From: a virus
Length of the DNA stretch: 64,000 nucleotides
Strand: one strand, 5' to 3'
IMG/VR virus record: IMGVR_UViG_3300010160_000036
Location: 1-64,000 of that record
Part shown: positions 15,595-64,000 of the stretch, piece after piece
Position numbering within the stretch: position 1 is the first letter of the stretch
Layout of the letters: every line of letters begins with the position of its first letter
The notes under the pieces: generated by a model
Seen by the model: only the letters and a program-made list of their open reading frames with translations
Told to the model about the DNA's origin: nothing
The model's database searches: none
Program-made: the position numbers and the translations under genes

Positions 15595-15629
15595 GATTTG
15601 AAAAAATACTAATTTTGGAGATTACAAAC

Positions 15630-51900: not shown

Positions 51901-52376
51901 TTCCCGCACTAGTTAATGGTATAGCGACTATTGGTTTAGAAGCTGACAAGAGAACAATTGCTCAAGTCATTGTTAAAAATGGTAATATAACGTTATCATC
52001 CAGTGACTACAATATAGATATTGTTGATACTGCTCCCGTACTGAAAATAACTTCAGGAGTTGCTGAAGGCGATACTGTAACTATTACATTGATTTTGGGT
52101 AATATAATATACTTGGCCGGAGAACAAATTCGTTTTACTACCATTGACTTTGATACTAATACTATCACAGGATTACAACGCGGAGCTAATGGAACTGGTA
52201 CACGAAGCTTTATTCCTGTTTACCAAAAGGTCTATAGCGCATTGTCTCAGGACAGACTACCTGACACTTACTACAATCAAACATGGAATTCATATGTTTA
52301 TAACACTGTATTGGGTGATCCGTTACAGATTAGTAACACTTTCAGCGCAAATTTCTTAAATCAGGACTATGCCTAA
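33939..52376 (+). CDS. Giant (6145 aa) baseplate wedge/receptor-binding protein (gp7 position)
   Basis: Uninterrupted 18.4-kb ORF after gp6; DKVINFNQYYW and YINEVKPYH wedge motifs, FG-GAP-like and BNR-like propeller repeats, at least 10 small beta-domain repeats; ATAAGTA at 33909-33915. Confidence 0.75.
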   Translation: MATRIRTLNFLPEVFQTPTNAQFLGATLDQITDQPNTMRIEGYVGSKFGYGINAKDKYVIEPTKTRTDYQLDPAVVFTKTNTATAVDFISYPGIVDAVKLNGGIIDNNDRLFNSQFYSWDPFVDLDKVINFNQYYWLPTGAPAVTVATDIVYNVSDYVVTDLPNGYNISSDVNPSGSTNPSLTFIRGGTYTFTVDQNTAFWLQGKPGVTGYDPAQPNLQTRNILGVENNGASRGVVTFNVPYKNAQDEYNFPGNNLVDVVSTTPFDEINGQLLSYVKNIDGVTALGGRTVLFYNTGVVNETGFVGPFYDTTLYDENGGNAPFVYPGTSIDNNNYNGGYYTDPSATFYLITYVGDPDNPTLKLVPYAPIPTEEKITAVYGTQWKARNFYRNIEGVINLIPYLSSLLDTIYYQDGTSPDKVGVIKLINSNSANQINVNDILGKKNYTAPNGVVFTNGLKVSFAGSIYPTTYKTGEYYVQGVGTAIELLDIATLIAPEPFTAGTYTPYDTLPYDIGNYDSTLYVPVYQDYLTIARNSIDRNAWSRSNRWFHIDVINATAGYLNDPTIVTTYATQNNKAKRPVIEFYPNLQLFNNNIVGKQPIDFFDTRTTDAFTQVAGQLAYYPDVEVYTASTASIASASSATSTTITVLASDVGPVTSIGASIGTFQVGQYITDNAGKLPRNSQISAISGTTTLTLTVTWPYASSFTSATNVSLIANGLPNDDYALYDGAKIVFSVDTNVDVRNKIYIVRFSSIAGSIPVITLTEVEDGLVLPNEGTFTFKGYYNQGMDFYFDGLTWFEAQQKTTINQAPLFDVFDNDGVSFGNNNVYVGSSFKGNKLFSYGIGSGINDLILGFPLRYSSVNNVGDISFDVLINSATFNYVKGIAPITQKVNTGYVHNYSDLSTFSRALGWQTAVAESRQYQVFNFDYVASNPVTTYTCDIAAATNTAWPNIQLYVNNDLQASSTYTYEITEDSTVITFTPPNPLVDTVIEITILSDQVSPTAYYEIPINLQNNPFNTDITTANVGDIRGQYQSIFYNNPDTTGVVFGSNNYRDLGNLVPWGNKIIQNSASLALPGTFLRKQNHNLVDSLQYNSQQYIIFKNLLVNTIDSTDYTYYQLPAVMLDNALDQITSGKIESGPFFWSDMLPNMSAYATNTYTFANSLDVSIYPLTRIYDFTKSNYYGVLVYLTRTVDNFTTTTQLLINIDYTVSTDTPSLTISTDLLPGDIVTIKEYNQTYGSYVPNTPTKLGLYPAFVPEVILDSNYTQPTYFIRGHDGSYNQLYGDYIDGNLVDFRDKVLLEFETRIYNNLKLSDIIPIRDYDVIPGFFRNTGYSYDEVLSIYSQYFLNWIGQNRVEYKPQVGYSSIDQFTYNYSQSGNKIDGSQILQGYWRGIYQYFYDTSEPNTTPWEMLGFTAMPSWWTGRYGAAPYTSDNLVLWKDLAQGINWNNGDPYVLSQFIRPQLLEVIPVDSAGNLLSPFDAIVGNYVERSFKHDWKVGDVAATELSYRRSSTWPFDLMKLLSLTKPAEFYNLGVDVDNYKYNTEFNQFLVNNRSHLVISDVQIYGNGIAKTSYINWIVDYEKQLGVDATTNITNLLANLDVRLAYRLAGFSDKTLLNFYVEKGTPNSTNASLLIPNESYQVLLYDNVPFDKIIYSGVIVQNVGTGWKVFGNSQNNAYFNISVPKINGNYNKVSVEGLSVQIANDYFDNKSQLIPYGTEFNSIHDVAQFIGSYNNYLLNQGVLFDQIESGLAVIWSQMVAEYLYWVQSGWEKGSLINLNPAANIMTINKDSYIVQPLTLQKQNFVLNQNLYPIKSTDLAVVREGTLFTATPLNQGDTVAYGQFNISNFEHGIVFNNVTLFNDIIYNLITGLRQARILTKGVKTADWNGTIDAQGFILNQDNILEWDSITKYTKGSIVLYKNRYWTALQVINASAIFDTKLWKETNYNEIQKGLLPNGSTRSYESTLFYNTNISNLDRDSDILSWSLIGYRPRDYLALADLTDITQVNVYKNMIKQMGTRIAANNFKGVTLLQGGIDYDINDNWAIKTGEFGGVLDNNFVDFRLNQTQLTGNPSTVALTTGDYTDGVEQEVPLYSVFNYSRPLTNPNVLPTLPVDTPNRLYPAAGYVNFNDISVYGYYYNDLNTAQTPLEKLYVGEYVWIADYNGTWQVYTPISNGQLIEVVNNLNGTVTLTFAEPHNLTKYQTIAIINFNAGVNGYRIVQSIIDNNRVTIALNLLASVTRLTGTGIVMRFQSQRVNQPSDINSLPLLNTEFVKNKVWVDTNTDGDWAVYRKSLNYVYDLELLRTGALKFGSAVATTSDLGYLIGDSDLGVAYRYVYDPVFKVFVMRQSITGSESFGSTISYSGNKFAISQPTGALLANRLVKVYDLIVSITQNILQLSQTIQAPTGATNWGSATAFSGDGNWLYISAYEQNSVYVYRKSQVTGLYEYSTIINVLGLVAGDNFSYSLSTNYYGDTVIIGAPDVDTTVDNTGSTYIFERLVQNFESQYNSQPLVPQTFKLVYTPGTTIRTASAIASNAVTLNSVAGLTAGVNGTAIVFTGTVFGSIALNQVYYVKSIVGSTVTLSLTRNGTTLTLTNSSGTMSAVVQTQPLFVSVNGTLITDNNYAVTGTTLNVYQSLIAGDIITSSSSQFVLIETLVSPDNLTIGEQYGYSLDTNTYGTEILVGSPFQLNSQNQEGAVYRYTDGGGKYGIITGLLDCQVSTPTTILINGYVVDIPLGNATIVANSIASANITNVTATTQNGKLVISTISNELAYVNDKLNIVTLSAHDFYQLGISKYQLTQTINDPHSQGRTQFGTTIKFNESSSFVVSSPVSTRYEETTFDASDDANYNNDTLFDNNTTQFLDTYTNAGAVYMFDYVSNYDENLNNVGQFVYAQNVNAFDLDYGAQPYYGTALDFNNNQVVVGTPNFRPNINNGQVIIYQNATGVQDWSVYRNSTPIVDVNAIQNAQLYSASTNNTLINLDYIDPLQGKLLGAVAENIDITSNRDPAAYNGPNSTNTSSIVWGAKHVGKLWFDTSTTKFVNYHQSNDVVYNSKWWGQVFPGSSPVVCSWISSNVLPTNYAGPGTVKDVNEYTIEYTLNTTGAIVPVYFYWVRNTNIVFTQLGKTLSDTICESYIANPLTTGISYFAPLLPNAFGLYNTMDYVNNTDTVMHVGFATGTNDDVSHSAYSLIRENTDDFLPGLPGTPGVTYPKSLYNRMLESMSGVDESGAVVPDPNLPKPVQSGILVRPRQSFFYDRFGALKNYLTTANEILAKYPYNETSYSTFLNTSGAVNPSTVGNPNWSGAEELFYNTQDYWTPINWWAIGYNDNTRPAMMVQSYYDLATLNAQNGLIVTVAKNGQGLQETYKYDIIINDWVRIGLQNGTIQFKSSLWDYATARLGFGDNFFDTTPFDTYPSEETRYIVRALNEEMPTELGFFKNEGLILLFNYIISETIESQNYLPWLNKTSFVDVSHTIRELLPLKIFQSDNQDFLSGYINEVKPYHVVIKDFLFRYTGLDLWRGNVTDFDLPATYNTNLQKYITPELVYTNPSQDNQYLPTDPIWQTPPYVEWFNNHGLSITGVNNYPITTLASYLTLNSIDMVVDNVYGFPVDSVIQIGEEQIAYSGVDRAYGLLTGLTRGVNGTPVTNHIPGEQIITDLPAVLLLNGGRGYTEPPKVTAYIDTTVFPAPTRAAILQPVMNLDTILRIDVVDPGEGYVELPQILIEPSAIITFPSSYVDLSNDTVIIQSQLLRTGDLIRYSVGANTTPIGGLKQGEYYYISVLETIPNFVISFYTTYVGALKDQDRVNLLNGGSGSNNYIAISARASCVSTAIPIRENQITLRFDRTSYTSQVQDWAPNNFYGSFYAGVFRNTTQVASSGLTLESSAPPIDSILASAQGAPFYLQDVSNNHVVDWSSRTRIVTNTSNTGYITIAPSEGGTPLEGYVGPTTGFYIGMPIKFTGAKFGGLVVGTVYYISAINGLTQFKLVDGVGNPVVLTTETAPVAGLTAMIGEVSNTAVVTIDYPGILPVTTTQSATNYVISPLLSGSQGGTAGFYQGISLFFTTNSTGNYQTFGNIVENETYYVTTVINSTTFTMSTSNNPINLTATQVYGTGDYVKLSTVSSLSINDPIIFTAMYIVGSSVSNFGGIIAGQVYYVASIDYSTNRITISNTVNGGNVNLSDVAAATNTYCTMTDQKDTVKLTTATGNITMNVGLPISPGQITGQKFTFYKTSGNYINGGAGYTGTVSNLVTRITVATTATSNYLYLNQLYGGTTHMYVNMPFKVTANIGNLIAGTTYYVKSLGTISVDISSSSSSTNLYTAANTTGFYVGMPIIFTGGIFGNVKPLVTYYIKSLPDSTHFSISEYLGGPTFILSGNNGLMTVSANDPYITVSSSLGGSTFALANSTTVTTLTQYVTSTPTFYVSYKLGGYSVTTHTAGSGFAYNNNITLLGTNFGGTTPLNDVIINVSGIGTTGEITSTIISGTPAELAKQYYLKVISDTQLEVYENALMTIPVDGTILAIEYAAGDYVFLPEPFYFNQSIVKYNNKVWQCIVSNSDAEFILGKWELMDSGSRRLNALDRIVGYYQPTVNMPGLDLTQLVSGIIYPNNTYLDNAFPPADEYPLDTLLSDQPFYPTSINNMAITWDGVKYVGGANSPTYSSAIISENSINWAIDKIADSPVSITSIKYVSGLYGSGLYVITTANSATPIYISQDGIQYATSGGAYIPYDSTAYSITPYDFSSLKVESTLLNSVDYFNNIWVAVGENIVASTDSYFWGEVYKLPYPGVLRSVHYVNNPGFTGWLAVGNWTIGNTTSSVILSSDDGFVWTQINEGITTIITSATLNVVYSSNDLIIFAGANGKLFSNASPASYTQQTTNVVTGLNDVIYADGVYVVVGDNGTIITSTDTITWTTRVSTTTNNLNGITYDVVNNRFVVVGDNNTILTSINAGVTWILSSVYTVDPTVYTVQGDAFTSGYGPEELVPGVVSDNLTMIVNTRPGTNWNVGEYGHTGFNVVSTQITPNTLTQTQYSFLNIVQNPATIAIYDLDLSTGLSVRTFNFTVDWVNKIITLTNYLAVNHQLVIDLYEVGNGDQLEKSNSQVVPFIDDVGTGFTEIPLNCNYSASRFNGSGVIRPGTGPTEILCTSTRALDNSILCASTTDFVLNQSIMFQGDVLGGLELDTDYYVKTISLITNRITVSASTVDGLAGPAYVLTDDTGSMEAIIISAIDLAWTDPIVLHNGNILNFGHQTIATQTKSLTNSIVCNTTGEFYPGDIVTFSDEIAVIPVGNFLYTTGLTPQYQYTILSIIDDNEFTVEDPANLGNALTLSDSTGIAICIVGDYAFAEETNGITAKLVFATQYNQNDDFVQFTVFGETQPQQYGYSIPLTQLYTAQGGETQLALENYVGGDNADNAIVEKNGLRLINISDYTISYATGFIYLNSSLAPNDVLAITTYNLTDRQYLNTTYGGTFAGSSTAILNIVATTHQSAFDELVVAGHFLTGVQYQIVSVGTTDFTSIGASSNTVGVIFTATGLGTGTGTAGVGWGDHFSPSPDYLTLGSGDTSALVTNLAVVFSAPTIGGIVANKYYYISTIIDSTTFSISETVSGPTFSLITDFGSMSGYINPAIVANITNIENTITAPAQVTTCSQTYFGTNVIDCANIPLGSAGLNVIFKGTSFGNIATDGTVYIVDTVVSATSFTIKDEYGDPVVLSDDTGSIVAYIGGTPAVTVYTGIPHGLQENNIVRINGVTGSVQLNNNTYYAKIVNITTIELYYAPYDPTLNYTNSPVTGVGAYTGGGYVWLDKTFTLTITNGTSTSSTGNKITVNSTRNLELNTPVYFTGNVTGTNLVIGTKYYIKEISSLTEFTVSTTYDGAVFVLANATVSFGVSEWEQSNVDRIWVTVNGYRIPSSSLYINPNNNLSILHTISPGDAVIITNMIPTSTPNELTYILNVTKDSIPSVFRANSLTTTWLTRTLQYTDSIIYVEDVSKLTNTIVQIDTVPALVNGIATIGLEADKRTIAQVIVKNGNITLSSSDYNIDIVDTAPVLKITSGVAEGDTVTITLILGNIIYLAGEQIRFTTIDFDTNTITGLQRGANGTGTRSFIPVYQKVYSALSQDRLPDTYYNQTWNSYVYNTVLGDPLQISNTFSANFLNQDYA

Positions 52377-52532: not shown

Positions 52533-53153
52533 ATGTCAGGAATACAATTAACATATAAAATTGAGGGTTTTATTAAAATCCACGATCCCAACACAGGGGA
52601 AGTTCTAGTGGACAAAAAGAACGCTATCAATTATGAAAATATGTCAGAAGCTATTGCTGACACACTAAGCAGTCGTGGTTACGGAGAAATTTATCAAATG
52701 GCGTTTGGGAACGGTGGTGCAAGCGTAGATGAAACAGGCGTTATCACATATCTACCCCCAAACACAACTGGTCAAAATGCTGCACTATACAATGAAACCT
52801 ACGCTAAAATCGTTGACGATACTAGCGTTTTCAACTTAGATCCTACACGTAACAAAATGACGGTTTCACACACTGTTGGTACTGTGTATACAGACATTTT
52901 AGTACAGTGTTTGTTAGATTACGGTGAGCCAGCAGGGCAGGCAGCGTTTGACAATAGCACTCAAACTGATTCTAGCTATATCTTTGATGAACTAGGATTA
53001 TTAGCAAATTACGGAACAGACAACGCAGGAAATGTCATCACACGACTATTAACTCATGTTATTTTCCACCCAGTTCAAAAAAGCTTGAACAGACAGATTC
53101 AAATTGATTACACCGTCAGAATTCAGGCGCTAACAAACTTAGTTACAATCTAA
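52533..53153 (+). CDS. Baseplate structural protein (gp8 position)
   Basis: MAFGNGG and FDELGL...LLTHVIFHPVQKSLNRQIQIDYTVRI motifs; synteny after the giant wedge gene. Confidence 0.55.
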   Translation: MSGIQLTYKIEGFIKIHDPNTGEVLVDKKNAINYENMSEAIADTLSSRGYGEIYQMAFGNGGASVDETGVITYLPPNTTGQNAALYNETYAKIVDDTSVFNLDPTRNKMTVSHTVGTVYTDILVQCLLDYGEPAGQAAFDNSTQTDSSYIFDELGLLANYGTDNAGNVITRLLTHVIFHPVQKSLNRQIQIDYTVRIQALTNLVTI

Positions 53154-53183: not shown

Positions 53184-54401
53184 ATGGCATATACAATAGT
53201 TAAAAGTGATGGAACAGTATTAACTACTATCGCTGATGGAACAATTAATACTACTAGCACCTCTTTAGGGTTGCCTGGTAGAAACTACGCAGGGTATGGT
53301 CAGCAATTAGATACTAACTTTGTGCACCAAATAGAAAATTTTGCGTCAACAACCCCGCCAGCAAACCCTCTAAGAGGTCAGTTATGGTATGATATCAACA
53401 ATACCTTGTTGAAATTATGCCCAACTGACGGGACTTCAAACGCTAATGCCTGGATAACTATTGCAGTTAGTTCTGGAACATCAACCACAACATTTGGTTC
53501 TGTCAACGTAACCGGTAATTTGACTGCAAATAACGTTATTGCTGTTAATGGTTTATACGGAGACACAATCACTGTTCGTTTAGCTACAGTAACATCACTT
53601 GCAACTATTGCAAACGCTAACATTACTACAGCAAACATTGGTACATTAAACACAGCAGTTATTAACGCTGGAGTAGCAAACACAACGACAGGTACATTGA
53701 CTGGTACATGGACAGCAAACGGTGGCGCATCCGGTAACACATTCATTGTTACTAACGGTAACTTAGTCGCTATCACCGGTATCAAAACAGATAACTATTA
53801 CTATGCTAATGGTGGCCCGTTCAATCCAACCGGTACATACACAAACGGTAACGTTTTTGACTATCTAACTGGTGCAAATGCAATCGTTCAATTTACTGGA
53901 AACATTGCCCCTACAAAAATTACAACAACTAATATTACTACAGGAAGTAATGTTACTAGTGGTACAATGACAGGCAACTTCACATTGACAGCAGGTTCAC
54001 GATTTAACGCAACATATGCTGACTTGGCAGAACGATTTGAAGCAGATGCATATTATGATGCAGGAACTGTAGTTGAAATGGGCGGAGACAAAGAAATTAC
54101 TGCGGTGCAATACGAACTGTCAGACGATGTATTTGGTGTTGTATCTGATACAGCAGCCTACTTGATGAATGCCGGCGCCGGTGACGACAGTACACACCCG
54201 CCAATCGCAGTTGGTGGCCGTGTTAAAGTTAAAGTAACTGGTAAAGTTAAAAAAGGTCAACGTTTAGTTTCTGCTGGTAATGGCATCGCACGTGCAGCCA
54301 AACTAGGGGAAGCAACAGCATTCAACATCATTGGTCGTGCATTGGAACACAAAACAACAGATGATTTGGGTATTGTGGAAGCATTCGTTAAAATAAATTA
54401 A
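53184..54401 (+). CDS. Short fibre/spike with C-terminal peptidase-G2-like autoproteolytic chaperone
   Basis: N-terminal GRNYAGYG...ENFA...GQLWYD attachment motif; YADLAE...GTVV...GVVS...GRVKVKV.G.VKKG..LV pattern; ATAAATA at 53155-53161. Confidence 0.7.
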   Translation: MAYTIVKSDGTVLTTIADGTINTTSTSLGLPGRNYAGYGQQLDTNFVHQIENFASTTPPANPLRGQLWYDINNTLLKLCPTDGTSNANAWITIAVSSGTSTTTFGSVNVTGNLTANNVIAVNGLYGDTITVRLATVTSLATIANANITTANIGTLNTAVINAGVANTTTGTLTGTWTANGGASGNTFIVTNGNLVAITGIKTDNYYYANGGPFNPTGTYTNGNVFDYLTGANAIVQFTGNIAPTKITTTNITTGSNVTSGTMTGNFTLTAGSRFNATYADLAERFEADAYYDAGTVVEMGGDKEITAVQYELSDDVFGVVSDTAAYLMNAGAGDDSTHPPIAVGGRVKVKVTGKVKKGQRLVSAGNGIARAAKLGEATAFNIIGRALEHKTTDDLGIVEAFVKIN

Positions 54402-54411
54402 GGGATAATAG

Positions 54412-55365
54412 ATGAGCTACGCACAATTTCAAACAATAGCAGCCGCAGACTTTAACGGTCTAGTTGGTGCAAACCCCGGAAGTACGGCAAACGTGTTAAA
54501 CACTGTTTGGGCAACAGGTTCTGTAGCAGCCGGGTATGGACAAACTGCTGAGGGAAATGTTGCAGTGGGTGATACCATTACTGCTATCAAGTGGGCTAAC
54601 TTAGTTAATAAAACTGCAAGCGCAGCAACACACCAAGGGTCAAGTATTACTGCTGTTAGTGCCCCGGTTACAGGTGGAACAATTACATACCTGTCAGCTA
54701 TCCCAACTAACTTAACTACAATTTATTCTAATAAGGCAAATGCTTCACCTGCACACAGTACAACAACTGCTAACACAGCTACTACAGTAGCTACTTGGAC
54801 TGACATTGCAACATTTACTCATACCGTTACATTCGCTAACGGTGATGCTACTCGTTATTTCTTCAACTCAGGTGGACAATTAGCAGTTACTGTTGCACAT
54901 CCTTCAGGAACTGGTATCAATTTGCTTTTAAACAATTTATGTTCAAATGTTGGTACAGTGGTATTAAGCTCACCTGTATCTGGTACAGCAAGTATTGCAG
55001 GTACGTCTTACAACGGTGTGACACGTATAGGTGGAGGTGGCAATGCTCCAACTATTGCTACTAACACTGGATATTATGCATTGACAACAGCCAATGCAAA
55101 CGTTTATTATCAAACTGCATCAACTGGCCCGGCTGGTTACCTATCAACTAACATTAATATCTTTATTAAAACTAATGGTACAGTTGGGTCAAACGGTGAC
55201 GTAGGTAACATTGTGACCATCACTACGGTTTGGGATGAAATTCCAAACGGGTTAATAGTCGCATCTGGTTCTACTACTACTGTTACAGCTAGGGTCCCGG
55301 AAACAACCAACTTAGCCAACAGTTGGGGAACTATTTCCCTAGCAGGCTCTGTAACACAATCTTAA
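54412..55365 (+). CDS. Thr/Ala-rich virion structural protein
   Basis: GYGQ and TRYFFNSGGQ motifs; AAGGGA RBS; in the fibre module. Confidence 0.55.
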   Translation: MSYAQFQTIAAADFNGLVGANPGSTANVLNTVWATGSVAAGYGQTAEGNVAVGDTITAIKWANLVNKTASAATHQGSSITAVSAPVTGGTITYLSAIPTNLTTIYSNKANASPAHSTTTANTATTVATWTDIATFTHTVTFANGDATRYFFNSGGQLAVTVAHPSGTGINLLLNNLCSNVGTVVLSSPVSGTASIAGTSYNGVTRIGGGGNAPTIATNTGYYALTTANANVYYQTASTGPAGYLSTNINIFIKTNGTVGSNGDVGNIVTITTVWDEIPNGLIVASGSTTTVTARVPETTNLANSWGTISLAGSVTQS

Positions 55366-55390: not shown

Positions 55391-55397
55391 CTAAATA
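55391..55397 (+). promoter_or_regulatory. Late promoter box CTAAATA for the modification operon
   Basis: CTAAATA, then AGGAG RBS and ATG 55415. Confidence 0.65.
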
Positions 55398-55414
55398 CTC
55401 TTAGGAGTACACAG

Positions 55415-55720
55415 ATGGATACCAAGACCTTAATTGCTGATGCAAAAGCCAGATTTAATCACAACAGTGCCAAAGCACAATTAAAAGACAAATATGATGG
55501 TAAGTTTATTGTTGCCGATCAAGGAGGACTATGGAAAGCCAATTTAGAAATCATTACTATCCTTAGTTCTTATGATGAAGATGATATTATATTAATAGAC
55601 AATTTTGATAATCCGGTTAAAGTTAACCGCATTGAGTTACTAACTAAATTAAAAATTACATATAAATCTGTAATGGAAACATGGTATACTGAATGGAAAG
55701 AAATAGAGTCTAATCGATGA
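55415..55720 (+). CDS. Hypothetical protein, first gene of the modification operon
   Basis: 101 aa, AGGAG RBS, ATGA overlap with the next gene. Confidence 0.6.
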   Translation: MDTKTLIADAKARFNHNSAKAQLKDKYDGKFIVADQGGLWKANLEIITILSSYDEDDIILIDNFDNPVKVNRIELLTKLKITYKSVMETWYTEWKEIESNR

Positions 55721-56517
55721 ACAGAGGCGCAATATTATTTGCGTTCAACTCGCCAAAGTTTGATTACTATAAAATGGCAGTTGCTACTGCAAAAAGAATC
55801 AATCACTTTTTAAATATTCCTGTTACTGTGGTGACAGATGAAAAGTCCATCACGGACCAAACATATGTATTTGATAAAGTAATTACGATGACACCTGATC
55901 TTAATAACATACGTGAGGGATCTATTTGGATTAATAAAGGTCGTTATCAAGCATATGATTATTCACCGTATGATGAAACATTATTATTAGATACAGACTA
56001 TATGGTCAACTCAAATAAGCTGTTACAAGTATTTAATTATTATGATGATTTTTGTTGTCATGATACAACTAGTTTTCTAATGCAGCCCGGAGTACCACAA
56101 GAGATTCTTAGTGCATATAGTTTTAAAACATTATGGGCTACTATTGTTGCATTTAAAAAAACAAATAGAGCTAAACAAATATTTGAATGTTTAGAAATGA
56201 TTCAAAAAAACTATGATCACTATTGTAATCTACATAGTTTTGTAGGCGGTGTATATCGCAACGATTACGCATTGACATTGGCACTTAGAATTGCGAATGG
56301 GCATTCGGATAATAAACAAGATATTATTCCTTGGAATTTAATTCATGTGGGTAAAAACACAAGCATATATAAAAACTTCAATTATGAGTTTAACACTGAA
56401 TACACAGTTATGTATGATAATTGGCAACGTGGTAAAATTCGTAAAGAATATATTACTATCAAAGACATGGACTTTCATGTAATGAATAAATTAAACTTTA
56501 TGGAGCTTATAACATGA
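55717..56517 (+). CDS. GT-A fold glycosyltransferase-like protein
   Basis: RGAILFA N-terminal strand, SPYDETLLLDTDY with DxD, RND motif, C-terminal FHVMNK. Confidence 0.7.
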   Translation: MNRGAILFAFNSPKFDYYKMAVATAKRINHFLNIPVTVVTDEKSITDQTYVFDKVITMTPDLNNIREGSIWINKGRYQAYDYSPYDETLLLDTDYMVNSNKLLQVFNYYDDFCCHDTTSFLMQPGVPQEILSAYSFKTLWATIVAFKKTNRAKQIFECLEMIQKNYDHYCNLHSFVGGVYRNDYALTLALRIANGHSDNKQDIIPWNLIHVGKNTSIYKNFNYEFNTEYTVMYDNWQRGKIRKEYITIKDMDFHVMNKLNFMELIT

Positions 56518-57275
56518 CCAAAGGTTTTGTAATTATGGCACAGGATACTGAAAAAGTCAGTTATACGAAATGTGCTGAAATGTTAAAAAAATCTATATTA
56601 AGCGTGATGGCGGGGGCTAATGTAACTATCATCACAACTGATATGCTACCCCACGGCGATCAAGCACCTGGTAGTAATTGGAAATTAATCAATGATTGGC
56701 AAGTATATGAAGCTAGCCCATATGATGAAACAATTAAATTAGAAGCAGATATGTATCTACCGCGTAATATTGAACACTGGTGGAATATATTGTCAATTAA
56801 CGATGTAAATATTTGCACGACTATTAGAAACTTTAAAGGTGAGATTTCTCATAACAGAGGGTACAGAAAGTTCATTGATGATAACAACTTACCTGACACT
56901 TACAATGCTATCACTTACTTTAAAAAGTCAGATACCGCAGAACAGTTCTTTGGTATTGTTAGAGATGTGTTTGAAAATTGGGAAGATTATAAGACAATAA
57001 TGAAATGTAATCCACAGGAAGAAGCAACAACTGATTGGGTATATGCCATAGCAAGTCATATTGTTGGTGTAGAGAAAACCACTCTTCCCGGCTTTACCGA
57101 ATTTTGTATGACACACATGAAGCAATTCATTAATGACATGCCCACTGAGAATTGGACAGACACATTAGTATATGAATGTTTTCCTGATATGATACGCATC
57201 AACACTTGTCCACAGTCTTACCCACTTCACTATCATGTTAAGAGCTTTGTTGATATAATAGGAGAACAAGTCTAA
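56514..57275 (+). CDS. GT-A fold glycosyltransferase-like protein, paralogue of 55717..56517
   Basis: KGFVIMA, SPYDETIKLEADM (ExD), C-terminal LHYHVK. Confidence 0.65.
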   Translation: MTKGFVIMAQDTEKVSYTKCAEMLKKSILSVMAGANVTIITTDMLPHGDQAPGSNWKLINDWQVYEASPYDETIKLEADMYLPRNIEHWWNILSINDVNICTTIRNFKGEISHNRGYRKFIDDNNLPDTYNAITYFKKSDTAEQFFGIVRDVFENWEDYKTIMKCNPQEEATTDWVYAIASHIVGVEKTTLPGFTEFCMTHMKQFINDMPTENWTDTLVYECFPDMIRINTCPQSYPLHYHVKSFVDIIGEQV

Positions 57276-57610
57276 TGGAACACGTACTTATTTGGGAACC
57301 CAAACCAATACCTAAAGTTGAATTTAGATTATATTATGACGACAAGGGTAAAGTGATATGTTATTCCGGAGAGCAATTAGACGGTAATTATATCATTATA
57401 GATGCCGCAACATATGCAGAAGGTCGCCCTGATATAAGGATTATTGATGGTAAAATATCAAAAGCATCTACAAGTGCAATAGTTACTAAGTTAATTGCAA
57501 ATGATGTTGAAGGGATTGAGTGTGCATTTGAAGATGTAAGCATAGTGATTGATAGTAGTTATATTGGTAAAAAACAAAAATGGAAGTTAGATATACATGA
57601 GCTTGGATGA
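57275..57610 (+). CDS. Hypothetical protein
   Basis: 111 aa, TAATG-coupled within the operon. Confidence 0.6.
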   Translation: MEHVLIWEPKPIPKVEFRLYYDDKGKVICYSGEQLDGNYIIIDAATYAEGRPDIRIIDGKISKASTSAIVTKLIANDVEGIECAFEDVSIVIDSSYIGKKQKWKLDIHELG

Positions 57611-58550
57611 TATTATTGACGTAGCAGACTTGGACTGCATTTATCTAAGTTATGATGAGCCACAAAAAGAAGAATTTTGGCTTAAAGTAAAGAACATGGT
57701 GCCTTGGGCAAAGCGTGTTGATAATGTTAAAGGTAGTGACGCAGCACACAAGGCTGCAGGTGAAGCAAGTGATACAGAACGATTTATTCTAATTGATGGT
57801 GACAACATGCCAGAAGAAAGTTTCTTCAACATTCAGTTAGACTTTACAACTAAAGACGAAACATTTAGAAAAGCACAGTTTAGATGGAAAGCAATTAACA
57901 GTATCAATGGCTTGCGCTATGGTAATGGTGGTATGAGCAGTTGGACAAAGACTTACGTGCGTGAAATGCAAACGCATGAGCATCAAACGGAGGGTGATGT
58001 TTCACGTATAGCTGACTTTTGTTTAGACAGCAAAGATAATCTATATTGGGCGATGCATGATTGTTACAGTACAACATATCCTAACTATACAAGTTTTCAA
58101 GCATGGCGTGCAGGTTTCCGTGAAGGTGTTAAAATGAGTTTGAATCGAGGCGTGCGCCCAACGGTAGATGAATTCAAAGAAACAGTTGCAAGCAGAAATT
58201 TAAATAATTTGACCATCTGGCAGAACGTGGGAATAGATGTAGAGAACGGTGAGTGGGCGATCATGGGAGCACGTATGGGAACTCATATGACTATGCTAAC
58301 TGATTGGGACGTACATAATGTTCAATGGTTTGATAACTATCCTGCAATGTGGGAAACAGTTAAAGATGAAGACCCACTAGAACTATCAGAATCATATGGT
58401 GTTGAACTAAGTACCAAACTAGGACTACCTATGTGTGTGTTAGATAGAGAACAAAGTAAATTCTTTAAACGTCATTATGGATCAAACTTTCATAACAAAG
58501 GTCCATTAGTAACTGAGATGGAAGTGATTCGTAAGATTGAAGGTTGGTAA
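57597..58550 (+). CDS. Glycosyltransferase-like (GT-A/nucleotide-diphospho-sugar) protein
   Basis: IYLSYDEP...RVDNVKGSDAAHKAA...FILIDGDN (DxD), YGNGG, AWRAGFREGVK motifs. Confidence 0.6.
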   Translation: MSLDDIIDVADLDCIYLSYDEPQKEEFWLKVKNMVPWAKRVDNVKGSDAAHKAAGEASDTERFILIDGDNMPEESFFNIQLDFTTKDETFRKAQFRWKAINSINGLRYGNGGMSSWTKTYVREMQTHEHQTEGDVSRIADFCLDSKDNLYWAMHDCYSTTYPNYTSFQAWRAGFREGVKMSLNRGVRPTVDEFKETVASRNLNNLTIWQNVGIDVENGEWAIMGARMGTHMTMLTDWDVHNVQWFDNYPAMWETVKDEDPLELSESYGVELSTKLGLPMCVLDREQSKFFKRHYGSNFHNKGPLVTEMEVIRKIEGW

Positions 58551-59212
58551 TGCAATTATATGATCCATCTAAGAAAGGTACAATCGTAGTTGGACATATG
58601 CGTTCAGGTTCTCAATATTTATTGAGTCTAGTTAAACTAGAATTGCAAAAAAATAATGTTGAATTTGATGACAACGGAGAATACTTTAAAGATATATTCA
58701 GTGCCATTAGATATACTGATAATAGTTACTCATTCTTAAATGTTATTGACAAAATAAAAGAACAGGACATTGGTACTAATTATAGTGTGGGTACTATTGT
58801 CTATCCTAATAGCTTAGATATGATTAGTCAGCATAAGTCAAATTATAATTATTTTTCTAATAATTATCATCTTATTAAAATGATTAGAAAAGATGTTATG
58901 GCACAATTTATGTCATACATGATATTTATTGAATCAAAGGCACTACATAGCGGTATAAAATCAATAGACGAAGTTAAAATAAATACTCCTTATACAGCAG
59001 GCAGAATTCATATAATATATTATTTAAATAAACTATTAGAATTGGACAGATTTAAGACTGATACAACTATATACTATGAAGATTTACCGCACTTACCCAC
59101 ACCAGGTCTAACAAAAAATAATTATAATATGACTCCTAAAGAATTTTTTAAAAATTACGATGATATTGCAAATCAAATTAACGAATTAAATATAACACAT
59201 TATGAGCGGTGA
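58550..59212 (+). CDS. Sulfotransferase-like (Stf0/P-loop type) protein
   Basis: HMRSGSQYL (5'-PSB-like), RKDVMAQFMS (3'-PB-like), YYEDL; start ATG 58550 (TAATG). Confidence 0.55.
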   Translation: MQLYDPSKKGTIVVGHMRSGSQYLLSLVKLELQKNNVEFDDNGEYFKDIFSAIRYTDNSYSFLNVIDKIKEQDIGTNYSVGTIVYPNSLDMISQHKSNYNYFSNNYHLIKMIRKDVMAQFMSYMIFIESKALHSGIKSIDEVKINTPYTAGRIHIIYYLNKLLELDRFKTDTTIYYEDLPHLPTPGLTKNNYNMTPKEFFKNYDDIANQINELNITHYER

Positions 59213-60767
59213 ATACGATCAATTCGCTAGAGATATGCGTGACCGCTTGAATGCGGTAAGTCCATCACTATGTCTTGCTAAGTGGCAACAAGTTTCTATA
59301 CACTTACCTAGTGGATTGACACAGAGTTGCTATCACCCACCTACTCATAAAATACCTCTAGAGTTATTGAAAGATAAGCCTAGCGTATTACACAACACCC
59401 CAATTAAAATACATGAACGTAAGCAAATGCTTGAGGGAAAAAGACCTGAAGGTTGTAGTTATTGCTGGAAAGTAGAAGATGCTAAGAGTGATGATCCTAA
59501 AGGTCATATGAGTGACAGACATTATCGTAGCAGTGAATGGTGGAATGCACCCACATTTGAAGAAGTAACTCAAAACAAGTTTGATTATGATGTTGTCCCT
59601 CGATATGTAGAAGTTAACTTTAATCAAGCATGTAACTTTAAGTGTATGTATTGTAGTCCTCATCTTTCTAGTAGTTGGGAAGAAGAGGTTAAAAAGCACG
59701 GTGGTTATCAATTAACCGGTATGATACATAATAACTTAGAAGCATTAGAACAAAAAGGAATGATGCCACTCAAGGTTGCAAATAAAGACAACCCCTATGT
59801 TGAAGCATTCTGGCAATGGTTTCCTGAAATCTATCGCAAATTACGGGTGTTCAGAATGACAGGTGGCGAGCCACTTATGGACAAAAACACATTCAAAGTG
59901 TTAGATTATGTAAATGAAAATCCTCATGGTCAACTTGAAGTAAGTATAACAAGTAATATGTGTCCGCCGGATCAAAAATTGTTTGATAGGTTTGTGGATA
60001 AAGTCAAAGCACTAGAAGAACTACGTACCTACGAAGATAAAGAAAACTTCAATGTACATAGCGGTAACAACTGGTATGTAGACAAAGGATTCAAGCACTT
60101 TTGGTTGTTTGTATCATTAGACGGCTTTGGTGAGCAAGCAGAATATATGAGAACTGGATTAGAGTTCGAACGCATGTTGAATAACGTTAGAACTTTCTTA
60201 CGTGAAACAAAATATTCTACTGTGAGTTTTATTAACACATTCAATATCATGTCTATACCAAGTCTGCACAATTTCCTAGCTATGGTTTTAGAATTACGGG
60301 CAGAGTTTGGTGGAAGAAGCCAAGTTGAGTTTGAGATTAGTCCTGATCAAACTGAGACTGAAAAAGAGAACAACATTGTTCACAAAGTTTATACCCAAAA
60401 AAAATATCAACGTGTATTCTTTGATATTCCAATACTAAGATATCCACCTTGGTTCAACATTCAGAATGCAGGACTATATGGTATCGATGAAGTAGAACGT
60501 TGTCTAAAGTATATGGAAGACAACGTACAAGGTGATGACTATCTGGAAACATTTGAGGGATTTAAACCGTATGAGATATTGAAAATTAAACGAGACCTTG
60601 CTATAATGAAAGAATCTCTACCTCAAGATCAATTACTACTAAATAAAAAGAACTTCTATATGTTCATCACTGAATATGATAGACGCAGGCAGACTAATTT
60701 TATGGAAACGTTTCCGGAACTAAAAAGTTACTGGAGAGAATGTATCAAAGCACACACCAAACATTAA
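59202..60767 (+). CDS. Radical SAM enzyme with N-terminal twitch/SPASM-like domain
   Basis: CNFKCMYC, TGGEPL, VSLDG; N-terminal CLAKW...SCYH...CSYCW. Confidence 0.9.
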   Translation: MSGEYDQFARDMRDRLNAVSPSLCLAKWQQVSIHLPSGLTQSCYHPPTHKIPLELLKDKPSVLHNTPIKIHERKQMLEGKRPEGCSYCWKVEDAKSDDPKGHMSDRHYRSSEWWNAPTFEEVTQNKFDYDVVPRYVEVNFNQACNFKCMYCSPHLSSSWEEEVKKHGGYQLTGMIHNNLEALEQKGMMPLKVANKDNPYVEAFWQWFPEIYRKLRVFRMTGGEPLMDKNTFKVLDYVNENPHGQLEVSITSNMCPPDQKLFDRFVDKVKALEELRTYEDKENFNVHSGNNWYVDKGFKHFWLFVSLDGFGEQAEYMRTGLEFERMLNNVRTFLRETKYSTVSFINTFNIMSIPSLHNFLAMVLELRAEFGGRSQVEFEISPDQTETEKENNIVHKVYTQKKYQRVFFDIPILRYPPWFNIQNAGLYGIDEVERCLKYMEDNVQGDDYLETFEGFKPYEILKIKRDLAIMKESLPQDQLLLNKKNFYMFITEYDRRRQTNFMETFPELKSYWRECIKAHTKH

Positions 60768-60775
60768 GGAATAAA

Positions 60776-62299
60776 ATGGCAGGCAAGAAACACGAAGAAT
60801 CATTTGCACAATATAAATCACGACTTATTGACCCAATTAGTGACAGTTATTGTGCCGCTAAATGGTTGAATGCTACAATTTGGCTAGGTAACGGACAAAC
60901 TACTAGTTGTCATCACCCATTAGGTCATCAAATTGACGCAAAAGAATTACTCACAAATCCGTCTGCAATTCACAATACGCCGCACAAGAAACTAATGCGT
61001 AAGATGATGCAGGAAGGTCAGCGCCCTCAAGAATGTGAATATTGCTGGAAGATTGAAGACATTGGTCGGGATAACATGAGTGACCGTGTTTATAAAACTG
61101 CTGTATTCGAAGAATCAGATATTCTTAAAACTGCTACCGCTGATTGGCAAGAGAATACGATGTTAAAAACATTAGAGATTTCTTTTGATCGTACTTGTAA
61201 TTTTGCTTGTTCATATTGCAACCCTTCGTTTAGTACAACATGGGTTAAAGACATTCACAAATTTGGCCCATATCGTAACATTGACGGTGATGCACGTAGT
61301 CACTTTATTAATGAAGCTGACCATGCTAAACCACTACCGGAAGATATTAACCCATACAGTCAAGCGTTCTGGCGTTGGTGGGAAGAAGGTCTTGCAGACA
61401 ATTTAGAAGAAATTCGCATTACGGGTGGTGAACCACTTATGGCTCCCGGTGTTTGGAAGTTGTTTGAGTGGTTTCGTAATAACCAAGAACGGGCGATAAA
61501 TCGTCCAGATGGTAAGGTATTGCGCTATGCTATCAATAGTAACTTAGTTCCTAAAGATGATATTATGGACAAATTGATAGAGTACAGTCAGTTTGTTCCT
61601 TACATGGAAGTCTATACAAGTTGTGAATCATTTGGTGCTCATGCTGAATACATTCGTGATGGACTTGATTGTAACAAATGGATTCATAACTTAGGTAGAT
61701 TACACACTGAAGGTAATATTAAAAAGACACACATGATGATGACTATCAACAGCTTGTGTTTGGCTAGCATTGTACAATTTATGGACCAGATGATGGAATT
61801 TAAAAAGATTCATAATACAGTTTATCCCACAATGAGTTTGAACATCTTGCGTTTCCCTAGCTTTCAAAGTTGTGCTATGCTGCCAACAGAGATTCGTCAG
61901 AAATATAAAGACCTGCTACAAGTATGGTTAGACAATCAGATTGCTATGGATTTCCGCACTACTGATGGTAAACAAATGTTTATGAGCATTGAACGTGAAC
62001 AAACACAACGATTGATTGACTACCTTGACGTTATCAAGACACCACACAAGAATGTTAAAGACATTGAACAGAATCGTAGAGACTTTAAGCAGTTCTATGC
62101 TCAGTATGATGTCCGTCGTGGTAAAAGCTTCCGTAATACTTTCCCACCAGAGTTTGTTGCATTCTACGATAGTATTCAAACAGAGTTACCAACGGCGGAT
62201 GAAATCATCACACAGAATTATCGTCAAGGGGTTGATTTAATCCCTGATCATCCACCGGAAGATCCTAGTAAAGATGTATTCTTTAACCCAGATTTATAA
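60776..62299 (+). CDS. Radical SAM enzyme with N-terminal twitch/SPASM-like domain
   Basis: CNFACSYC, TGGEPL; CAAKW...SCHH...CEYCW; start ATG 60776 with AAGGA. Confidence 0.9.
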   Translation: MAGKKHEESFAQYKSRLIDPISDSYCAAKWLNATIWLGNGQTTSCHHPLGHQIDAKELLTNPSAIHNTPHKKLMRKMMQEGQRPQECEYCWKIEDIGRDNMSDRVYKTAVFEESDILKTATADWQENTMLKTLEISFDRTCNFACSYCNPSFSTTWVKDIHKFGPYRNIDGDARSHFINEADHAKPLPEDINPYSQAFWRWWEEGLADNLEEIRITGGEPLMAPGVWKLFEWFRNNQERAINRPDGKVLRYAINSNLVPKDDIMDKLIEYSQFVPYMEVYTSCESFGAHAEYIRDGLDCNKWIHNLGRLHTEGNIKKTHMMMTINSLCLASIVQFMDQMMEFKKIHNTVYPTMSLNILRFPSFQSCAMLPTEIRQKYKDLLQVWLDNQIAMDFRTTDGKQMFMSIEREQTQRLIDYLDVIKTPHKNVKDIEQNRRDFKQFYAQYDVRRGKSFRNTFPPEFVAFYDSIQTELPTADEIITQNYRQGVDLIPDHPPEDPSKDVFFNPDL

Positions 62300-63696
62300 T
62301 GACAAACAAAATAATCCCTGTATGGGAACACGCTAAGCCGCACAAAGATAGTAAGAACAAGGTGTTCTGTATGGCACCTTGGACTCATACTTATATCAGT
62401 CCGCAATCTGAAAGACGATTGTGCTGTGCCTCACGTGAAGAACACTCATTTCAAAAACAATATATTGATAGTAGTAACGATTCAAAGTATGGAACTGTTA
62501 CTGAAAGTAAGACAGCACTAGATGACTACCAACCAGTAAGTTTAAAAGAACACTGGAATAGTGAATACATGAAAGACATTCGTGTGAAGCTAATGCGCGG
62601 CGAAGAGATTCCTCAATGTGATGTATGCAACAAGAACTTGTTGATGGAAGGTTATAGTTATCGTGGCTGGTTTACCGGCACCCTATTCAAAGATAAGATA
62701 GAAGAAGCTTTTGATAAGACAGATGACACTGGTTATACAACAATGGAACCAATAAGTTTTGATTATCGCTTTAGTAATCTATGTAACTTTAAGTGCCGTA
62801 TGTGCGGTGAGCAATTATCTAGTTCATGGGAAACTGAAAAGAAAGTAAATAATCTTTGGAACGAAAAGAATCAACCATTCATGATTCCTGAAATCAAATC
62901 AGCAATGAAAACTTTCCAAGAAGAAGTTGTTGAAGTTGAATTTCGTGATGCAGTAAGTCGTGGCATTGTAGAAGAAATGTATTGGGTCGGTGGTGAGCCA
63001 TTAATGTACGATATTCACTGGTGGACACTAGAAGAAATGTTAAAAAATGGTTCTTCTAAGAATTGCTACATGCGTTATAATAGTAATTTAAGTCGTGTTC
63101 AATTTGGTCAAAAGAATCTGTATGATTATCTTCCATTGTACAAAGATTGGATGATGTGTGCTAGCATTGATGGTACAGGCGAGATTGTAGAATACATTCG
63201 CACGGGTATCAAGTGGGACAAATGGCTTGAAAATTTTAAGAAAGGTCTAGAACTACCCAATGGCAAAGACAAGATGATACTTGACTTGACATTAACCGCA
63301 CCCGGTATGTTCTCGCTTAAAGAGTTGTTTGACTTGAGTATTGAGTTAGATGTTAAAATTGAAACTAAAACGACATTTGGCTTTCATGCTGATATTATGT
63401 GGACCCCATTAAGTTGGCCACGTGAAATATTAGACGAAGTGATTGATGATATCCTTGCATATATTACACCACGCGCTACTTGGAAGCAAGCAACATTAAT
63501 TGGTAACTTAGAAGCACTAAAGAATACACGTAAGACACATGAAGAAGAATGGCCTGATACTTATAAGCAAGCCGCATTGAACGGCAAGAATTGGGTCAAG
63601 AGATTAGAAAGTATCCGTGGAGATACAGATGTTACAATGCGTAGTATATACAGTCGCAATTCAAAACTATTGCAATGGTGGGACAACATAGGATGA
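62299..63696 (+). CDS. Radical SAM enzyme with N-terminal twitch/SPASM-like domain
   Basis: CNFKCRMC, VGGEPL, ASIDG; CMAPW...LCC...CDVC. Confidence 0.9.
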   Translation: MTNKIIPVWEHAKPHKDSKNKVFCMAPWTHTYISPQSERRLCCASREEHSFQKQYIDSSNDSKYGTVTESKTALDDYQPVSLKEHWNSEYMKDIRVKLMRGEEIPQCDVCNKNLLMEGYSYRGWFTGTLFKDKIEEAFDKTDDTGYTTMEPISFDYRFSNLCNFKCRMCGEQLSSSWETEKKVNNLWNEKNQPFMIPEIKSAMKTFQEEVVEVEFRDAVSRGIVEEMYWVGGEPLMYDIHWWTLEEMLKNGSSKNCYMRYNSNLSRVQFGQKNLYDYLPLYKDWMMCASIDGTGEIVEYIRTGIKWDKWLENFKKGLELPNGKDKMILDLTLTAPGMFSLKELFDLSIELDVKIETKTTFGFHADIMWTPLSWPREILDEVIDDILAYITPRATWKQATLIGNLEALKNTRKTHEEEWPDTYKQAALNGKNWVKRLESIRGDTDVTMRSIYSRNSKLLQWWDNIG

Positions 63697-64000
63697 GTAA
63701 TACATTATGCGTATTACCCTGGATGCATCTAGCAACACATCCAAACGGGGGCGCAAGCCTCTGTTGCCGTAGCAACCACACAGACGCAGTTAGTTGGGCA
63801 AAAAAATCTAACACACATAATCTTGTTATGTTAGATAACGATAGTGTGGAAGATATAATGAACAGCGAGAAGTTCGTTGAAGTTAGACAAGCAATGATTG
63901 ATGGTAAACGACCTGTTGAATGTGAAGGTTGTTGGAAAGATGAAGATGCTGGCATTAAAAGTAAACGCCAGTACGAGAATGAGCGTTGGGCACACATTAT
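63693..64000 (+). CDS. Fourth radical SAM paralogue, N-terminal part only (truncated by the window edge; absent from the ORF track)
   Basis: MSNTLCVLPWMHLATHPNGGASLCC...VRQAMIDGKRPVECEGCWKDE; same Cys pattern as the three upstream genes; ATGA overlap. Confidence 0.8.
   Translation, partial: MSNTLCVLPWMHLATHPNGGASLCCRSNHTDAVSWAKKSNTHNLVMLDNDSVEDIMNSEKFVEVRQAMIDGKRPVECEGCWKDEDAGIKSKRQYENERWAHI

Follow-up and report, generated by a model that had tools for sequence, protein, structure and literature searches.

The locus described here raises the question of what a tailed phage makes with three glycosyltransferases and a long array of radical S-adenosylmethionine (SAM) enzymes encoded directly behind its fibre-type genes, and to which acceptor the product is attached. 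The locus lies in IMG/VR virus record IMGVR_UViG_3300010160_000036, of which we analysed a window of 64,000 nucleotides (bases 1-64000 of the 76,352-bp virus contig). Our reading, which we hold at a probability of roughly 0.55, is that these genes form a late, soluble operon whose products build a glycan and then alter it through radical reactions, acting most likely on virion proteins. The two halves of this proposal differ in strength. That the operon encodes a glycan-building and -tailoring pathway is, judging from its gene content, quite probable; that the acceptors are virion proteins made concurrently (the adjacent fibre-type proteins or a giant 6145-residue protein) is put forward tentatively, at somewhat less than even odds.

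The contig derives from an uncultured freshwater T4-like jumbo (giant) phage. Among its products are a major head protein, a portal, SbcCD-like nucleases and proteins of the baseplate hub and wedge; it also contains a 6145-amino-acid (aa) open reading frame (ORF), and near-complete contig DNA was recovered in several freshwater metagenome runs. Searched with Megablast, the region matched none of 50,697 phage records, and a distant-mode nucleotide search of phage records gave a single match, of 398 bp, in the cultured Ralstonia jumbo phage RsoM2USA. An initial annotation of the window, made from the letters alone, had described a late box and a ribosome-binding site followed by at least ten closely packed genes between 55391 and 64000. 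Its gene layout (the box, the ribosome-binding site, then ten co-directional ORFs), its calls of glycosyltransferases with a GT-A fold and its radical SAM genes were upheld, while its label of one gene as an Stf0-like sulfotransferase and its right-hand limit were not. The left part of the stated extent is sound; the limit at 64000 is an artefact of the window, and the operon reaches the end of the contig at 76352. The features of the operon are as follows.

55391-55397, plus strand: late-promoter-like box CTAAATA, read directly
55403-55407, plus strand: Shine-Dalgarno sequence AGGAG, 7 nucleotides (nt) ahead of the s1 start codon
55415-55720, plus strand: s1, conserved 101-aa protein
55717-56517, plus strand: A, 266-aa GT8-like retaining-type GT-A glycosyltransferase
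56514-57275, plus strand: B, 253-aa paralogue of A in which E77-A-D79 replaces the DxD motif
57275-57610, plus strand: s2, conserved 111-aa protein
57597-58550, plus strand: C, 317 aa, with a GT-A domain (residues ~3-179) and a helical C-terminal domain
58544-59212, plus strand: S, accessory protein, 222 aa as called, 220 aa from ATG 58550
59202-60767, plus strand: R1, N-terminal-twitch radical SAM, subfamily I, NF033640 283 bits
60740-62299, plus strand: R2, N-terminal-twitch radical SAM, subfamily I, NF033640 290 bits, Cys motifs intact
62299-63696, plus strand: R3, N-terminal-twitch radical SAM, subfamily II, NF033640 300 bits, five N-terminal Cys including a CC pair
63675-64000, plus strand: 5' part of R4, whose full gene ends at contig position 64871
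contig 76155-76352 (14155-14352 of locus L001), plus strand: 5' end of an O-carbamoyltransferase gene, whose ATG overlaps the x3 stop; the contig ends inside the gene

The organization of these genes points to a single transcription unit of the late type. Neighbouring operon genes, all on the plus strand, abut or overlap by 1-28 nt at stop and start, and the operon, which is translationally coupled, extends over at least 21 kb in the contig and ~30 kb in a complete relative. Its start, with the s1 ATG at 55415, lies behind a gap of 49 bases that follows the stop of the upstream gene f3. For comparison we used the best 80 of 391 IMG/VR stretches encoding relatives of C (hereafter, the related loci). 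A (C/A/G)TAAATA box, mostly CTAAATA, together with a ribosome-binding site that is mostly AGGAG, stood upstream of s1 in 79/79 related loci, with the remaining spacer variable, and this conservation of the late box exceeds chance. In the 76-kb contig CTAAATA occurs 13 times on both strands, and five of these copies are intergenic: one precedes the operon and the others the portal gene, the head-region gene after it and two structural clusters, in each case 24-43 nt ahead of a gene start; outside the operon, the boxes lie 25-43 nt before the portal gene, the gene at 8659-9522 and the genes starting at 15615 and 23156. One gene preceded by CTAAATA is the first of the baseplate cluster, and ATAAATAC precedes a 1278-aa gene and the baseplate wedge gene. 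The T4 late-promoter consensus is TATAAATA. Because the box matches this consensus, the operon is predicted to be late-transcribed. A perfect TATAAATA also occurs at contig 73932-73939, 13 nt before the R11 start codon and inside the 8-nt gap after x2; such closeness to the ATG leaves no room for the leader of a T4-type late promoter, and the copy may be due to chance or mark an internal start.

The initial annotation had called three GT-A-like proteins, and fold comparison confirmed A and C, with B as a paralogue of A. None of the three has a Pfam or NCBIfam match or a useful PHROG match, so the GT-A assignment was drawn from fold matches. The AlphaFold model of A (predicted local distance difference test, pLDDT, 90.3) superposed over its whole chain (model range 1-266) on glycogenin-1, with a VIA Z of 17.0 and 202 residues at 3.7 Å; it gave a VIA Z of 14.8 with the lipooligosaccharide (LOS) galactosyltransferase LgtC and also superposed on LARGE1. 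Foldseek likewise returned glycogenin as the best match (2e-7), then GlyE, Skp1 alpha-GalT and UGGT. The DxD motif of A (LLLD92-T-D94) is invariant in 43 sequences. Pfam gave no PF01501 (Glyco_transf_8) match for A at E <= 0.1, and among named Atlas clusters those nearest to A have PF03407 in 30-51% of their members or PF01501 in 20%. A resembles GT8 enzymes in fold, with no match to the curated GT8 sequence family. B aligned to A with hhalign at 98.2% (E 4e-14, 199 columns) and has KLE77-A-D79 at the site of the DxD of A; E77 and D79 are both invariant, in a departure from the canonical motif.

C is the best-conserved enzyme of the operon, with 75-96% identity across the related loci. Foldseek with its AlphaFold model (pLDDT 92.3) placed the capsid glycosyltransferase A64R of chlorovirus PBCV-1 at the top (3.5e-4), then BcsA, TarP and SunS. 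The GT-A domain of C superposed on B4GALNT1 with a VIA Z of 10.1 (145 residues at 3.2 Å); a Leptospira glycosyltransferase, WrtF, ThuS/SunS and STIV A197 gave VIA Z 8.9-9.8, and dozens of GT-A enzymes fell at VIA Z 8-10. Both Asp residues of D67-x-D69 are conserved in at least 90% of 80 sequences. Since nucleotidyltransferases of the same fold also score Z ~8-9 against C, its transferase chemistry was deduced from the DxD motif together with fusions to GT-B domains. In these ~740-aa proteins (P0183, P0184, P0203 and P0209) an N-terminal GT-B domain (EryCIII/GT28/UDPGT) is joined to a C-type domain, an arrangement that provides independent evidence for a predicted role of the C-type domain in glycosylation. 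At 50% identity the C family falls into 1100 clusters, and its close relatives number more than 8000; other C-family proteins, of 500-880 aa, hold two C-type stretches. Neither single-sequence nor profile searches with C, S or A against PDB sequences gave anything significant. GmaR, at E 0.15, was discarded as a match of C, and because the hhalign comparison of A with C was non-significant (4.5% probability), we do not claim C as a paralogue of A and B.

Behind these enzymes lies an array of radical SAM genes that far exceeds the four paralogues first recognised in the window, all of which score above the NF033640 cut-off save for the truncated R4 piece. NF033640 (N_Twi_rSAM, twitch domain-containing radical SAM protein) has a cut-off of 170 bits. 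Beyond R4 the contig continues through R5-R9, R10, the unassigned genes x1 and x2, R11, the likewise unassigned x3 and the first 66 codons of the O-carbamoyltransferase gene to 76352, so that it encodes eleven radical SAM proteins, ten of the N-terminal-twitch type and one, R10, of the SPASM type. Besides the scores listed above, those of the array are 345 bits for R4, 287 for R5, 175.5 for R6, 346 for R7, 360 for R8, 241 for R9 and 224 for R11 (171-360 for all ten), and R10, at 46.7 bits, is not a member and has a C-terminal SPASM region instead. All ten keep CxxxCxxC, GGEP and the N-terminal Cys set. They fall into a subfamily I with four N-terminal Cys (R1, R2, R5, R9 and R11) and a subfamily II with five, including a CC pair (R3, R4, R6, R7 and R8). 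R1 has four N-terminal Cys and CNFKCMYC, and in R3 a Pfam SPASM match (residues 24-111) precedes the Radical_SAM core (157-315). Paralogues share only 14-34% identity, whereas orthologues in other phages share 80-97%; a recent tandem duplication is therefore ruled out, and the array is an old assembly. No members above the cut-off were found in 14 control genomes.

R1-R9 and R11 thus share with NF033640 the N-terminal Cys-rich auxiliary-cluster domain and the CxxxCxxC core; that family is catalogued without an assigned function, whereas here ten diverged tandem copies of two subfamilies stand in a phage glycosyltransferase operon. The N-terminal region (profile positions 6-77) aligns to residues 181-258 of the twitch domain of BtrN, the butirosin 2-deoxy-scyllo-inosamine dehydrogenase (E 2.6e-5). 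The two auxiliary-cluster domains are homologous, and a carbohydrate-like substrate is plausible; the twitch domain is C-terminal in BtrN and N-terminal here, and core similarity is low. We found no paper on the NF033640 family, papers on "twitch domain-containing radical SAM" proteins being concerned with other enzymes, and none on a jumbo phage with both radical SAM and glycosyltransferase genes; a cyanophage paper (PMC12801897) describes a single, unrelated radical SAM gene.

Bacterial relatives of the array often lie in a setting of polysaccharide synthesis. We surveyed loci of R1-type enzymes only, with a three-member subfamily-I alignment, as an alignment of all ten paralogues proved too heterogeneous for scanning. 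They proved almost confined to Bdellovibrionota genomes, many on contigs of 0.1-3 Mb, with R1 up to 47% identical to the proteins of this group. Recurrent neighbours include GT2, GT4 and GT7-LamG glycosyltransferases, a DegT sugar aminotransferase, a carbamoyltransferase, a GLF-like flavoprotein and an ABC-2/ATPase exporter pair, and some of these loci also hold a C homologue. Neighbours of polysaccharide type were present in at least 28/78 bacterial loci, a minimum figure, since annotation was confined to recurrent clusters. Three contigs (L110, L148 and L089) assigned to metagenome-assembled genomes of Fischerella, Legionellales and Neomarinimicrobiota carry A-B-C-R1, L110 and L148 with f1-f3, s1 and s2 as well, and all three are probably phage DNA binned into bacterial genomes. 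The bacterial R1-type enzymes (L083-L160) are concentrated in predatory Bdellovibrio, Bacteriovoracaceae and Halobacteriovorax, with up to nine copies per locus (L104).

Comparison of the related loci separated an invariant core from a variable tail. The order f1-f2-f3-s1-A-B-s2-C was the same in all 80, and DNA collinearity with relatives ended exactly at the C stop codon (58550-58556). The two small proteins of the core, s1 (79 loci, 48-72% identity) and s2 (80 loci, 42-76% identity), have no Pfam, PHROG or NCBIfam match. Downstream of C the tail varies gene by gene, with single genes inserted between radical SAM genes among relatives, and an R1-type gene usually comes first. Within 10 kb downstream of C, N_Twi radical SAM genes number 265 across the related loci; radical SAM genes of a second type occur in 44 loci and a short-chain dehydrogenase/reductase (SDR) nucleoside diphosphate (NDP)-sugar epimerase/dehydratase in 22, along with B12-radical SAM methyltransferase-like genes, FkbM methyltransferases and unassigned genes. 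The operon of a complete relative of 352 kb contains 14 radical SAM genes; after x3 come a 501-aa O-carbamoyltransferase (NovN 7e-52, GdmN, TobZ), to which the N-terminus encoded at the contig end is ~90% identical, then an acidic 1427-aa protein that closes the operon (L164 3629-7912) and a 690-bp gap. Residues 1202-1371 of this last protein constitute a further GT-A domain of the C type (hmmsearch 6.5e-24), and its other ~1200 residues have no assignment; PDB sequences gave no match to the protein. That tailoring cassettes are exchanged gene by gene while the core stays fixed suggests that the product is under diversifying selection. In our contig x2 (73112-73936) has a weak, below-threshold Pfam match to GDSL/SGNH hydrolases (E 0.003) and, if the match is real, might be an esterase or acyltransferase-type tailoring enzyme.

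A minimal form of the core is present in RsoM2USA, behind its sheath and structural genes, in the order f2-like gene, small ORF (at the position equivalent to s1), A', B', small ORF, C', one R1-type radical SAM and a C-like paralogue. All of these core ORFs are annotated as hypothetical. C is 41% identical to C' (ORF350), and R1 is 34% identical to the lone RsoM2USA radical SAM, which likewise follows the C homologue.

Together, these data argue for a glycan pathway because of its parts: three GT-A enzymes, NDP-sugar enzymes, O-carbamoyl-, methyl- and possibly sulfotransferases, and radical SAM enzymes with kin in polysaccharide loci. The function proposed in the initial annotation, glycan building and tailoring, is thus supported by the three GT-A folds, the fusions of C-type and GT-B domains, the sugar-tailoring genes of relatives and the bacterial polysaccharide loci. 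In the mechanism we propose, A, B and C would move sugars from nucleotide sugars to a cytoplasmic acceptor, with the retaining GT8-type pair A and B perhaps working as a heterodimer in which the ExD paralogue B is non-standard or regulatory. Each radical SAM enzyme would then use its 5'-deoxyadenosyl radical to take hydrogen from one sugar C-H, with the N-terminal auxiliary [4Fe-4S] cluster accepting or returning an electron as in BtrN. The products could be keto, epimerised, deoxy or C-C/C-branched sugars, with a different edit for each paralogue, and carbamoyl groups, perhaps sulfate and, in relatives, methyl groups would be added on top. The outcome would be that related phages bear different surface glycans.

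The gene S, directly behind C, is where sulfate might enter, and here the Stf0-like call made at first was not confirmed, as no Pfam, NCBIfam or PDB-profile match was found. S has only 14 homologues among 5.8 billion proteins, occurs in 3/80 related loci and gave no PDB match by sequence or with a 13-sequence profile; in the nearest Atlas cluster PF09037 (Stf0) is carried by 12% of members. Its invariant residues are a KKGTIxxGxxRSG(S/T) loop, R115 and S124. The loop and the Arg...Ser pair resemble the 5'-phosphosulfate- and 3'-phosphate-binding loops for 3'-phosphoadenosine 5'-phosphosulfate; S as a sulfotransferase is a possible lead only. Its true start is probably the ATG at 58550, and relative to loci L004 and L015 the gene is a clean ~650-bp indel between the C stop and the R1 start (window 58550-59202). 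An unrelated 202-aa gene fills this slot in L032 and L015.

To which acceptor would such a glycan be attached? No operon protein of the contig or of the complete relative contains a membrane segment (no 19-residue Kyte-Doolittle window reaches 1.6), and the operon has no flippase, polymerase or exporter, so the acceptor should be cytoplasmic. Virion proteins are favoured because the operon shares a late box with virion genes and keeps its place behind fibre genes even in RsoM2USA, and because A is near protein-glycosylating GT8 enzymes and C near viral capsid and glycocin glycosyltransferases. The upstream genes that could supply acceptors are the following.

52533-53153, plus strand: f1, conserved 206-aa protein of the upstream fibre-type gene set
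53184-54401, plus strand: f2, fibre/spike-type protein
54412-55365, plus strand: f3, Thr/Ser/Gly/Ala-rich fibre-like protein

f1 matches phrog_11259 (8e-68) and is 83-99% identical across all related loci that reach it. The N-terminus of f2 matches a PHROG labelled "virion structural protein" and is 41% identical to RsoM2USA ORF355, and its C-terminus is an intramolecular-chaperone (IMC) autoproteolytic domain of the Peptidase_G2 type (PF11962, 26.0 bits against a cut-off of 25). f3, in which Ser and Thr make up 26% of residues, has no family match in Pfam/PHROG-type searches and is syntenic in all related loci that reach it. The giant 6145-aa protein is encoded by a single ORF at window 33939-52376, directly 3' of the baseplate wedge gene; the RsoM2USA product encoded at the equivalent position is a virion protein of 2541 aa that mass spectrometry has confirmed (PMC8504454).

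Several observations weigh against virion glycosylation and have to be set beside this evidence. The initial annotation had named co-occurrence with sequon-rich fibres as a check, and the sequon idea failed, whereas the late-type promoter and the position directly behind fibre-type genes (an order constant in the 80 relatives and present in RsoM2USA) held, as did glycan building and tailoring: f1-f3, the giant protein and other structural proteins have no more NxS/T sequons than their composition predicts, the counts lying within 1.3 standard deviations of shuffled sequences (z <= 1.3). A, B, C and S are all below every curated family threshold. The solved radical SAM enzymes nearest by sequence are the peptide maturases 8vpo (from a cyclopropylglycine-synthase study, PMC10878394) and SkfB, with GDGT-MAS, viperin and BlsE also among the nearest relatives of the core. 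The type of array does not follow the sequence type of the fibres; in L055, R1 is 92% identical, f2 63% and f3 54%. Adjacency to fibre genes could also reflect merely a recombination-prone "host recognition" region of the kind described in PMC7029224.

The alternative that survives best, though we consider it unlikely, is that the soluble enzymes remodel the host surface, acting at the cytoplasmic face on lipopolysaccharide-core, O-unit or capsule intermediates so as to block superinfection, for example, or to keep progeny from sticking to debris. Peripheral GT8 enzymes require no membrane segment, and the fold of A is closest to GT8 enzymes, among which is LgtC, the LOS galactosyltransferase (Z 14.8). 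GT8 genes in the host recognition cluster of pelagimyophages were read in the same way in PMC7029224, and the bacterial radical SAM homologues sit in exported-polysaccharide loci with ABC-2 transporters. The membrane steps of such loci, however, were not found among the operon proteins, whereas the Bdellovibrionota loci do carry ABC-2 exporters: the operon, ~30 kb in the complete relative, has no flippase, polymerase, exporter or polyprenyl-phosphate transferase. A promoter of the late type common to virion genes would leave little time for export to count, and the top fold matches of A are the protein-glycosylating GT8 enzymes glycogenin, GlyE, Skp1 GalT and UGGT.

Modification of DNA, in which the glycosyltransferases would glycosylate a modified base and the tailoring enzymes diversify the glycan against restriction, strikes us as improbable. 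The pathway is soluble, an arms race predicts hypervariability, and phage GT-A enzymes and epimerases are known to place mono- and disaccharides on 5-hydroxymethylcytosine (bioRxiv 10.1101/2023.12.21.572611). The clusters described by Pyle et al. in that study resemble the present operon in combining phage GT-A/GT-B enzymes with sugar epimerases that make diverse glycans; they adjoin 5mYOX or ThyS and replication genes, whereas here the neighbours are fibre genes, the cassette lies among them behind a late box, and no such partner exists in complete relatives. No Tet/JBP dioxygenase scored above threshold in five relatives (four at least 95% complete, one 86%), and the single ThyA-family gene (PF00303) of these relatives belongs to the thymidylate synthase equivalog NF002497 (343.8 bits against 327). 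Complete relatives thus lack Tet/JBP enzymes and have a thymidylate synthase of the canonical kind only, and neither a hydroxymethyl-pyrimidine pathway nor the route by which phage DNA is known to become glycosylated is visible in them. A, B and C are net acidic, and eleven to fourteen radical SAM enzymes are out of scale with known base glycans.

Equally hard to credit is maturation of a protein or peptide, in which twitch/SPASM radical SAM enzymes would modify s1, s2, a fibre or the giant protein in the fashion of glycocins or other peptides that are made by ribosomes and modified post-translationally (RiPPs), with sugars as a side decoration. Enzymes of the SPASM/twitch type often act on peptides, the operon contains two conserved small ORFs, and C is similar to SunS and ThuS (Z ~9), which are S-glycosyltransferases of glycocins. 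The resemblance to the maturases 8vpo and SkfB, the nearest solved structures, is limited, however, to the radical SAM core (profile positions 114-333), and the recognised bacterial contexts are polysaccharide loci, not precursor-peptide loci. Moreover, s1 and s2 stay constant while the arrays swap, and it is sugar-nucleotide enzymes and the O-carbamoyltransferase that co-vary with the arrays. Least credible of all is a free soluble pseudo-oligosaccharide or aminoglycoside-like metabolite made late as an unattached antibiotic, signal or compatible solute, an idea encouraged by characterised kin among antibiotic-sugar enzymes (the BtrN twitch domain, BlsE and the carbamoyltransferases TobZ/NovN/GdmN) and by the lack of an identified acceptor-specific element, and countered by the invariant gene order behind fibre genes across distant phages, by the absence of a recognised scaffold-forming enzyme (cyclitol synthase or similar) among the operon genes scanned, and by GT8-type folds nearest to protein glycosyltransferases.

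Glycosylation of virion proteins, the reading we prefer, has precedents. The initial statement that such a pathway would be largely uncharacterised in tailed phages is fair as a generality and too absolute as it stands, as mycobacteriophage virion glycosylation and pelagimyophage cassettes are already published. In mycobacteriophages Che8, Corndog and Myrna, soluble phage glycosyltransferases decorate virion proteins (Freeman et al. 2023, PMC10527164, as cited in PMC12619734); there glycosylation of the virion is demonstrated, whereas here it is predicted from genes, and those systems comprise one to a few glycosyltransferases, with no radical SAM, carbamoyl or sulfo tailoring. In Foldseek C matches the Che8 glycosyltransferase weakly (3.8e-3, probability 1.0), a likeness at the level of the fold only. 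PBCV-1 A64R, a virus-encoded cytoplasmic GT-A enzyme that acts on a structural protein, is the top Foldseek PDB match of C (VIA Z 8.0), but it belongs to a eukaryotic virus, is 10% identical to C and has the GT-A core alone in common with it. Radical tailoring is not part of the established virion glycosylation of mycobacteriophages or chloroviruses. In pelagimyophages and cyanomyophages, a "host recognition cluster" forms a hypervariable island in the structural region of these T4-like aquatic phages; it contains tail fibres, glycosyltransferases of the GT8 type and cassettes of radical SAM genes that are not the same in closely related phages (Zaragoza-Solas et al. 2020, PMC7029224). Those are marine phages of 150-200 kb, presented without gene-level analysis and with the glycosyltransferases read as modifiers of the host O-chain; the present system, in contrast, belongs to a freshwater jumbo lineage of ~350 kb and has a defined invariant core, a late box and an array of 11-14 radical SAM genes.

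The operon occupies ~30 kb of a 352-kb complete relative, nearly one tenth of the genome, and C has thousands of near relatives in metagenomes. Should its product indeed be a virion glycan, no protein glycosylation system known from tailed phages would be more elaborate, and the operon would tie radical SAM chemistry to carbohydrate editing at large scale. The question of the acceptor is directly testable, since the cultured phage RsoM2USA carries, in its ORFs 354-347, a version with one radical SAM gene; the concentration of NF033640-type enzymes in predatory Bdellovibrionota is a separate lead. Diversifying selection on the product would bear on host range and on phage-host recognition in lakes. 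More speculatively, and with the odds clearly against it, the N-terminal-twitch radical SAM enzymes might be a new class of post-glycosylation editors, each making a different transformation (oxidation, epimerisation, deoxygenation or C-C branching) on a sugar that a fibre or particle protein of the phage already bears, so that the swappable array would act as a combinatorial surface-glycan code setting host range or evasion of defences. Such a code, if it exists, would be relevant to an abundant lineage of freshwater jumbo phages.

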